Of a stretch of DNA of 64,000 bases, positions 28,127 to 28,403 are shown piece by piece; position 1 is the first letter of the stretch; each line of letters starts with the position of its first letter. Made by a program: the position numbers and the translations under genes. The stretch lies in NCBI RefSeq assembly GCF_054482595.1, contig NZ_CM137008.1; one strand, 5' to 3'. The notes under the pieces were generated by a model. It ran no database searches, had not been told where the DNA came from, and was given only the letters and a program-made list of their open reading frames with translations.

Positions 28127-28403
28127 GCGATCTACTGTGGATAACTCTGTCAGGAAGCTTGGATCAACCGGTAGTTATCCAAAGAACAACGGTTGTTCAG
28201 TTTTTGAGTTGTGTATAACCCCTCATTCTGATCCCAGCTTATACGGTCCAGGATCACCGATCATTCACAGTTAATGATCCTTTCCAGGTTGTTGATCTTA
28301 AAAGTCGGATCCTTGTTATCCACAGGGCAGTGCGATCCTAATAAGAGATCACAATAGAACAGATCTCTAAATAAATAGATCTTCTTTTTAATACCCAGGA
28401 TCC
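28127..28403. other. Chromosomal replication origin oriC
   Basis: Reverse complement of the canonical oriC: DnaA boxes tgtggataa at 28136..28144 and ttatccaca at 28328..28336, dense GATC sites, AT-rich 13-mers (gatctctaaataaatagatcttcttttta) and the terminal ggatcc at 28398..28403; located between mioC and mnmG. Confidence 0.92.

Follow-up and report, generated by a model that had tools for sequence, protein, structure and literature searches.

The replication origin of an Escherichia coli chromosome and the two accessory islands on its mnmG flank

What, if anything, follows from the position of accessory DNA beside a bacterial origin of replication? The window analysed here, a stretch of 64,000 nucleotides of an Escherichia coli chromosome, contains oriC and, on one of its flanks, a fimbrial operon and an AT-rich block; across all 64 kb it differs by four SNPs from strain XH990 (NZ_CP019359.1, 4805800–4869799). 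A preliminary description had read the origin as intact, had set the two islands close to it on the same replichore, in a highly expressed macrodomain where gene dosage is highest, and had regarded this placement as notable for cargo putatively silenced by H-NS. Based on the analyses described below, we consider it very probable that the origin is a canonical oriC, that the islands are old, vertically inherited alleles of variable gaps, that their proximity to the origin was not selected, and that local silencing outweighs dosage.

The first part of the window reads ilvD-ilvE-ilvM-ilvG, yifB, maoP, hdfR and rrnC, followed by yieP, mdtD, rbsRKBCAD, kup, ravA-viaA, asnA, asnC, mioC and then oriC. 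Past the origin come mnmG, rsmG, atpIBEFHAGDC, glmU, glmS and the lpf2 operon, and the window closes with pstSCAB-phoU, the AT-rich block, yieH, adeP and yieF. The rrnC operon (7308–12317, minus strand) and likewise the ilv leader region were recovered, and ilvG (1920–3566, minus strand) is one intact open reading frame of 548 amino acids; the gene is frameshifted in K-12, and an intact ilvG is ordinary in wild strains. A match to the small RNA family STnc410 (Rfam, 187.7 bits) lies in the atpC-glmU spacer at 38682–38839 on the minus strand, antisense to the flanking genes.

The origin itself occupies 28127–28403, between mioC and mnmG, with a minimal origin extending from DnaA box R4 to the L 13-mer (28136–28381), and its orientation in the window is the reverse of the K-12 convention. 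Its elements and immediate neighbours are the following:

27670–28113, plus strand: mioC, neighbour of oriC
28136–28144, minus strand: DnaA box R4, TTATCCACA, perfect
28175–28183, plus strand: DnaA box R3, TTATCCAAA
28210–28218, minus strand: DnaA box R2, TTATACACA
28261–28269, plus strand: DnaA box R5M, TCATTCACA
28316–28324, plus strand: DnaA box R1, TTATCCACA, perfect
28338–28393, minus strand: duplex-unwinding element, made up of three 13-mers and an AT cluster
28338–28350: 13-mer R, an exact match to K-12
28353–28365: 13-mer M, an exact match to K-12
28369–28381: 13-mer L, an exact match to K-12
28382–28393: AT cluster, read directly from the sequence and adjoining 13-mer L
28492–30381, plus strand: mnmG (gidA), neighbour of oriC

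No DnaA 9-mer in the 64-kb window is perfect apart from R1 and R4. GATC occurs 13 times in the 277 bp of oriC, whereas a segment of that length holds 1.26 on average across the window and never more than 7 elsewhere; the minimal origin, from R4 to the L 13-mer, holds 11, which is the published count for oriC, and these eleven Dam sites would serve SeqA sequestration. The orientation of R1 and R5M is opposed to that of R2 and R4, as has been published for the DnaA-oligomerisation regions on the left and right. This cluster of motifs is far above chance expectation. The cumulative GC skew reaches its minimum at 27–28 kb, coincident with oriC, with a mean skew of −0.050 to the left of the origin and +0.053 to its right (Mann-Whitney p = 1.5e-7).

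Compared with the annotated oriC of K-12 MG1655 (NC_000913.3 3925744–3925975), the locus carries two substitutions, at window positions 28191 and 28305, and all elements are in register, which bears out the earlier reading of an intact origin with DnaA boxes, GATC sites and 13-mers between mioC and mnmG. A 431-bp query spanning the origin was matched in 5424 of 5426 complete E. coli genomes, always on the chromosome, the median number of places in a genome being one; at least 80% of the query was matched in 5379 of the 5426. Identity at the best place was at least 99% in 1747 genomes and 95–99% in 3677, and it reached 100% in at least 14 genomes among the matches listed. Judged by its sequence, the locus is a canonical E. 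coli origin of functional type, and its near-identity to the K-12 origin predicts that it initiates replication in vivo.

Island 1 comprises the 6964 bp between glmS and pstS, starting 2 bp past the glmS stop and ending 105 bp upstream of pstS:

42287–49250, plus strand: Island 1, a chaperone-usher fimbrial operon, lpf2 of the O157 OI-154 type, with boundaries set against K-12
42287–42983: lpf2 leader, 697 bp, 28.1% GC
42304–42308: empty attTn7 insertion point (GAAGG), 20–24 bp past the glmS stop
42984–43586, plus strand: lpfA2, from the RefSeq annotation
43689–44375, plus strand: lpf2 chaperone gene
44397–46931, plus strand: lpf2 usher gene
46943–48034, plus strand: first lpfD-like gene, with a TAG at 47507–47509
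48062–49144, plus strand: second lpfD-like gene

The island has 43.7% GC overall, its marked AT-richness being found only in the leader and the 5′ genes. In the operon, the model NF011817 scores 356.7 bits (cut-off 203), and Pfam Fimbrial domains are present; the StgD/LpfD models align full-length to the lpfD-like products, with scores below their cut-offs. In the first lpfD-like gene, position 47508 carries A where XH990 has G, a SNP that converts TGG to TAG (W189*); this private nonsense codon is one of the only four differences from that strain in 64 kb. The genes of the operon are thus not all intact here, and this codon may leave the lineage with defective Lpf2 tips.

An lpf operon in the glmS-pstS gap of several E. 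coli lineages has been published. In another genus, Superficieibacter electus carries between glmS and pstS (locus 10001–13353) an lpfC usher gene that is truncated at its N-terminal end, with 73% identity in the best segment, and a single lpfD-like gene, so that fimbrial occupancy of the gap may be old or recurrently acquired. A cross-species scan with the usher protein returned two loci only, in Escherichia sp. and in S. electus; the scan is pattern-based and insensitive, and absence elsewhere therefore carries no meaning. There is presumably homology to the Salmonella stg operon at glmS-pstS; a literature search gave no account of stg at that site, and we do not use this presumed homology as evidence.

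Island 2 stands where K-12 has bglGFBH-yieLK-cbrCB, and the haplotype to which it belongs continues into the adjoining core:

54004–61464: Island 2, the Z-locus (Z5211-5214), 31.5% GC, in the phoU-yieH slot, with boundaries set against K-12
54441–56972, plus strand: espY5-type open reading frame, full-length, 843 amino acids from an ATG after an AGGAG motif, with a WEX5F motif
57205–57342, minus strand: decayed relic of cbrC (yieJ), residues 4–49, with two in-frame stops
57426–58613, minus strand: espX3-type pentapeptide-repeat gene, 395 amino acids, intact
58914–61322, plus strand: espY4 orthologue, 802 amino acids, 81% identical to EspY4 of O157:H7, with a WEX5F motif
61465–62363: yieH and the yieH-adeP spacer, a deeply diverged allele with 71–89% identity to K-12 (150-bp bins)

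The Z-locus genes were later named espY4, espX3′ and espY5′ in O157. WEX5F is the published N-terminal motif of the EspY/SopD family, and alignment finds it in both large open reading frames (WEFIRDLF and WEFVRDLF); translocation of O157 EspY4 by the type III secretion system has been reported. The espX3-type gene, which is truncated or split in O157:H7 (locus 35616–36287), has weak pentapeptide matches in Pfam, all under the gathering cut-offs. The espY5-type gene is frameshifted in O157:H7 by a net 13-nt deletion (espY5′), and it is left unannotated by RefSeq/PGAP in XH990 and TB06051, which show only an 84-bp 'partial hypothetical' at 54441–54524. We considered the possibility that this open reading frame is spurious and rejected it: the frame opens with the ATG at 54441 behind AGGAG, is 31% identical to espY4 over the full length, and can be aligned with the frameshifted gene of O157. 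In this lineage, that of a urine isolate, none of the three effector-family genes is disrupted.

How long has the Z-locus been in place? The cbrC relic lies in a short patch of 40.8% GC between espY5 and espX3-espY4, and because of this position the Z-locus looks composite; its ancestor may have resembled the arrangement in E. albertii, with cbrC adjoining phoU. In the parts of Sankar et al. 2009 (PMC2646131) that were searched, we found no mention of a cbrC relic. The flanking core is 97–99% identical to K-12, and beyond the diverged yieH segment identity returns sharply to this level from 62364; on this comparison, the Z-locus haplotype reaches some 900 bp into the core gene yieH. The diverged, linked yieH allele, together with the enclosed cbrC relic, suggests that the Z-locus is an old resident and not a recent arrival. 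Sankar et al. 2009 (PMC2646131) describe the Z-locus as an alternative to the bgl island in 19% of strains, with about 30% GC, clonally inherited and without mobility genes, and report that the distribution of bgl and Z alleles follows the clonal phylogeny, a single recombinant having been seen in 174 strains.

Measured from the right edge of oriC, the lpf island starts at 13.9 kb and the AT-rich island at 25.6 kb, both on the mnmG side, in agreement with the distances of about 14 and 26 kb given earlier; they span 14–21 kb and 26–33 kb of one replichore. We surveyed their occupancy in the 5426 complete E. coli genomes, counting lpf2 carriers at 95% identity or more. The lpf2 operon is present in 354 genomes, of which 348 (~98% of carriers) have the identical glmS-island junction, and roughly 1476 further genomes among the 5426 carry the divergent lpfO113 allele. 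The Z-locus is present in 1054 (19.4%), and the phoU-island junction in 1084. Neither island query gave a full-length plasmid match, and the lpf2 query gave no plasmid match of any kind; core flanks formed part of the Z-locus query, which has 2 of its 9713 places on plasmids. O157:H7 shares the gene order between mioC and yieH (oriC-...-glmS-lpf2-pst-phoU-Z-yieH). Among the 14 close relatives listed with both coordinates, the spacing from the start of the oriC query to the start of the Z-locus query is 25,749–25,752 bp in 13; the fourteenth, THO-010, has a spacing of 39,822 bp and carries a Tn7 of 14,067 bp. Comparison across genomes, the check that the preliminary description itself had suggested, thus finds the position of the islands relative to oriC to be conserved.

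Conservation of position does not by itself tell us its cause. For the Z and bgl alleles, Sankar et al. 2009 (PMC2646131) attribute it to clonal inheritance in a syntenic core, and we infer that lpf2 likewise owes its position to vertical inheritance. Selection for origin proximity is unnecessary to explain where the islands lie. Positional conservation, the cross-genus lpf relic included, is equally expected under selection for the site, and the genome counts fit both.

What would the proximity of the origin offer to such cargo? The Ori macrodomain is, according to published work, a structural domain organised by MaoP/maoS, and both components of this system are found in the window:

5701–6039, minus strand: maoP
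6074–6090, minus strand: maoS, an exact 17-bp copy (CTAATACTCCGCGCCAT)

They lie 22 kb from oriC, on the replichore opposite to that of the islands. To speak of a highly expressed macrodomain is to conflate this structural domain with gene dosage, and we do not retain that part of the preliminary description. Its statement on dosage fares better: under the Cooper-Helmstetter relation, with C = 40 min assumed, the computed copy number of the islands is 0.98–0.99 of that of oriC, that is, within 1–2% of it, whatever the growth rate. The computed origin:terminus ratio is 4 at a doubling time of 20 min and 1.6-fold at 60 min.

Set against this dosage is the composition of the islands. The surrounding core has about 52% GC, compared with 31.5% in Island 2 and 28.1% in the lpf2 leader, both of which are AT-rich by this measure. 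The 10-bp high-affinity H-NS motif occurs at 2.4–2.8 per kb in the islands versus 1.2–1.5 in the core, and not once in espX3; since this roughly 2-fold difference is only weakly discriminating, we rely for silencing on AT content and the literature. Of the two lpf operons, lpf1 alone is the one for which H-NS silencing has been demonstrated; the regulators reported for lpf2 are Fur, iron and bile salts. In an RNA-seq series of EDL933 under eleven conditions, Z5212 and Z5214 give almost no signal in LB or in most of the remaining conditions and rise only with antibiotics. The bgl operon, which K-12 and about 77% of strains carry in the phoU-yieH slot, is H-NS-repressed and cryptic under all laboratory conditions according to PMC2646131, and H-NS is named as a strong, dominant repressor of bgl in PMC9499468. 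Reporter studies have found that most positional differences in expression follow copy number, and that extra H-NS-dependent repression follows local AT-richness, an origin-proximal site included. From these data, H-NS-type silencing of both islands is predicted.

Is the placement of the islands then notable? H-NS targets have been published as statistically enriched in the chromosome's terminus half, so AT-rich cargo beside oriC is a minority case, and to this extent the emphasis of the preliminary description stands. It is weak in other respects: dosage varies at most about 4-fold, and bgl already occupies the same slot, so that H-NS-silenced cargo beside oriC has been known for decades.

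We propose the following model for the flank as a whole. The islands would have been acquired in permissive gaps of a strongly syntenic core and then inherited clonally, the glmS-pstS gap, which also holds attTn7, carrying lpf2, and the phoU-yieH gap carrying the Z-locus, allelic with bgl. Their expression would be governed by local, AT-dependent silencing of the H-NS type together with specific regulators, and these would outweigh the advantage in dosage that the site confers, about 4-fold at most. A modest influence of growth rate, or of coupling to replication, on the islands is possible. The cryptic bgl operon at the same position may be regarded as a natural control, and it argues against a strong effect of proximity.

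The most serious competitor to this model holds that origin-proximal placement is adaptive, either through the dose provided by multifork replication or because early passage of the fork transiently lifts H-NS, and that fimbrial and effector expression would thereby be coupled to fast growth. Copy number is indeed maximal at the island sites, about 98% of lpf2 carriers keep the position, genomes with the Z junction (1084) are at least as many as Z carriers (1054), the arrangement is the same in O157:H7, and an lpf relic sits in the same gap of another genus. Each of these observations has to be weighed against what is known of the cargo. Conservation of bgl and Z is attributed to clonal inheritance, and the allelic bgl at the same place is described as cryptic whatever the growth conditions, both in PMC2646131; Z5212 and Z5214 stay almost silent in LB and in the majority of conditions. 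In addition, dosage spans no more than about 4-fold, H-NS targets are generally biased towards the terminus, and lpf1 and other genes of the espX/espY family bear locus tags far from this region. We therefore regard adaptive placement as unlikely.

Less likely still is that selection acted on the clustering itself, the gathering of AT-rich islands with H-NS-type silencing within about 35 kb of oriC; we give this only a slim chance. In one version, the fork would cross the islands within about 1 min of initiation and transiently strip the silencing filament, yielding a pulse of fimbrial or effector expression coupled to replication and growth rate; in another version, the H-NS-bound blocks would help to insulate or structure the region around the origin. 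If origin proximity did modulate silenced cargo, replication dynamics would be linked to virulence-gene expression.

Could Island 1 instead derive from a Tn7-like element that entered at attTn7, either as its cargo or as what is left of it? The site is a dedicated safe-harbour insertion site, and Island 1 begins 2 bp past the glmS stop, in the very gap that contains it. A genuine Tn7 occupies attTn7 in the near-identical sister strain THO-010: a canonical element of 14,067 bp (locus 2378–16444), with tnsABCDE, a class 2 integron bearing dfrA1-sat2-aadA1, and a 5-bp target duplication of GAAGG. This element adjoins lpf2, 14 kb from oriC. Against a Tn7 origin of lpf2, neither tns genes nor a Tn7 end sequence were found anywhere in the window, and the THO-010 element was inserted into lpf2-island DNA with a fresh 5-bp duplication, from which it follows that the attachment site was still empty. 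Moreover, lpf-type operons occupy this gap in about one third of E. coli (1830 genomes), and a relic does so in Superficieibacter. We therefore rejected a Tn7 origin for lpf2, which seems scarcely credible: neither the ends of Tn7 nor tns genes are present, and the attachment site stands vacant and still usable. Up to three layers can be stacked on this flank of oriC, namely Tn7, lpf2 and the Z/bgl slot.

That the motifs of the feature at 28127–28403 have come together by chance, or that it is a degenerate copy and no working origin, has virtually no probability left, given only two substitutions relative to the K-12 origin with all named elements in register, a single-copy chromosomal locus in 5424 of 5426 genomes, its coincidence with the GC-skew switch, and no point that we found in its favour.

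Taken together, the origin, lpf2 at glmS-pstS and the Z-locus at phoU-yieH have all been described in the literature already. The window presents the E. coli origin together with its counter-clockwise flank in a clean and well-anchored form, with three classic variable sites (attTn7, the gap that holds lpf and the bgl/Z slot) within 35 kb of oriC, and it has little significance beyond correct annotation.

How does this flank compare with the systems already known? The origin shares with K-12 oriC its flanking genes, the DnaA boxes R1, R5M, R2, R3 and R4 with their orientations and spacing, the L, M and R 13-mers, the AT cluster and the eleven GATC sites, and differs at 28191, between R3 and R2, and at 28305, between R5M and R1. 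Island 1 corresponds to lpf2 of O157:H7 (O-island 154) in its glmS-pstS site and in the gene order lpfA2, chaperone, usher and two lpfD-like genes, with 99% DNA identity across the 6964 bp and a shared LpfA2 accession (WP_000804045.1). Unlike in O157:H7, where the chaperone gene is split, this gene is intact here, and the W189* codon in the first lpfD-like gene belongs to the present sequence.

The Z-locus resembles Z5211-Z5214 of O157:H7 EDL933 in its phoU-yieH slot, its GC content of about 30% there, and its two paralogous genes of about 800 codons flanking a pentapeptide-repeat gene. Its frequency of 19.4% of genomes (1054/5426) is close to the 19% of strains given in PMC2646131. In O157, however, espX3 and espY5 are pseudogenes, whereas the three open reading frames are intact here, and the EspY4 proteins are only 81% identical. 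With the bgl operon of K-12, finally, the Z-locus shares its chromosomal slot, its replichore and about the same distance from oriC (20–30 kb), as well as its character of accessory, horizontally acquired and silent DNA, as described in PMC2646131. The genes are unrelated, those of bgl serving beta-glucoside uptake and hydrolysis, and H-NS repression, which is experimentally established for bgl, is for the Z-locus a prediction.
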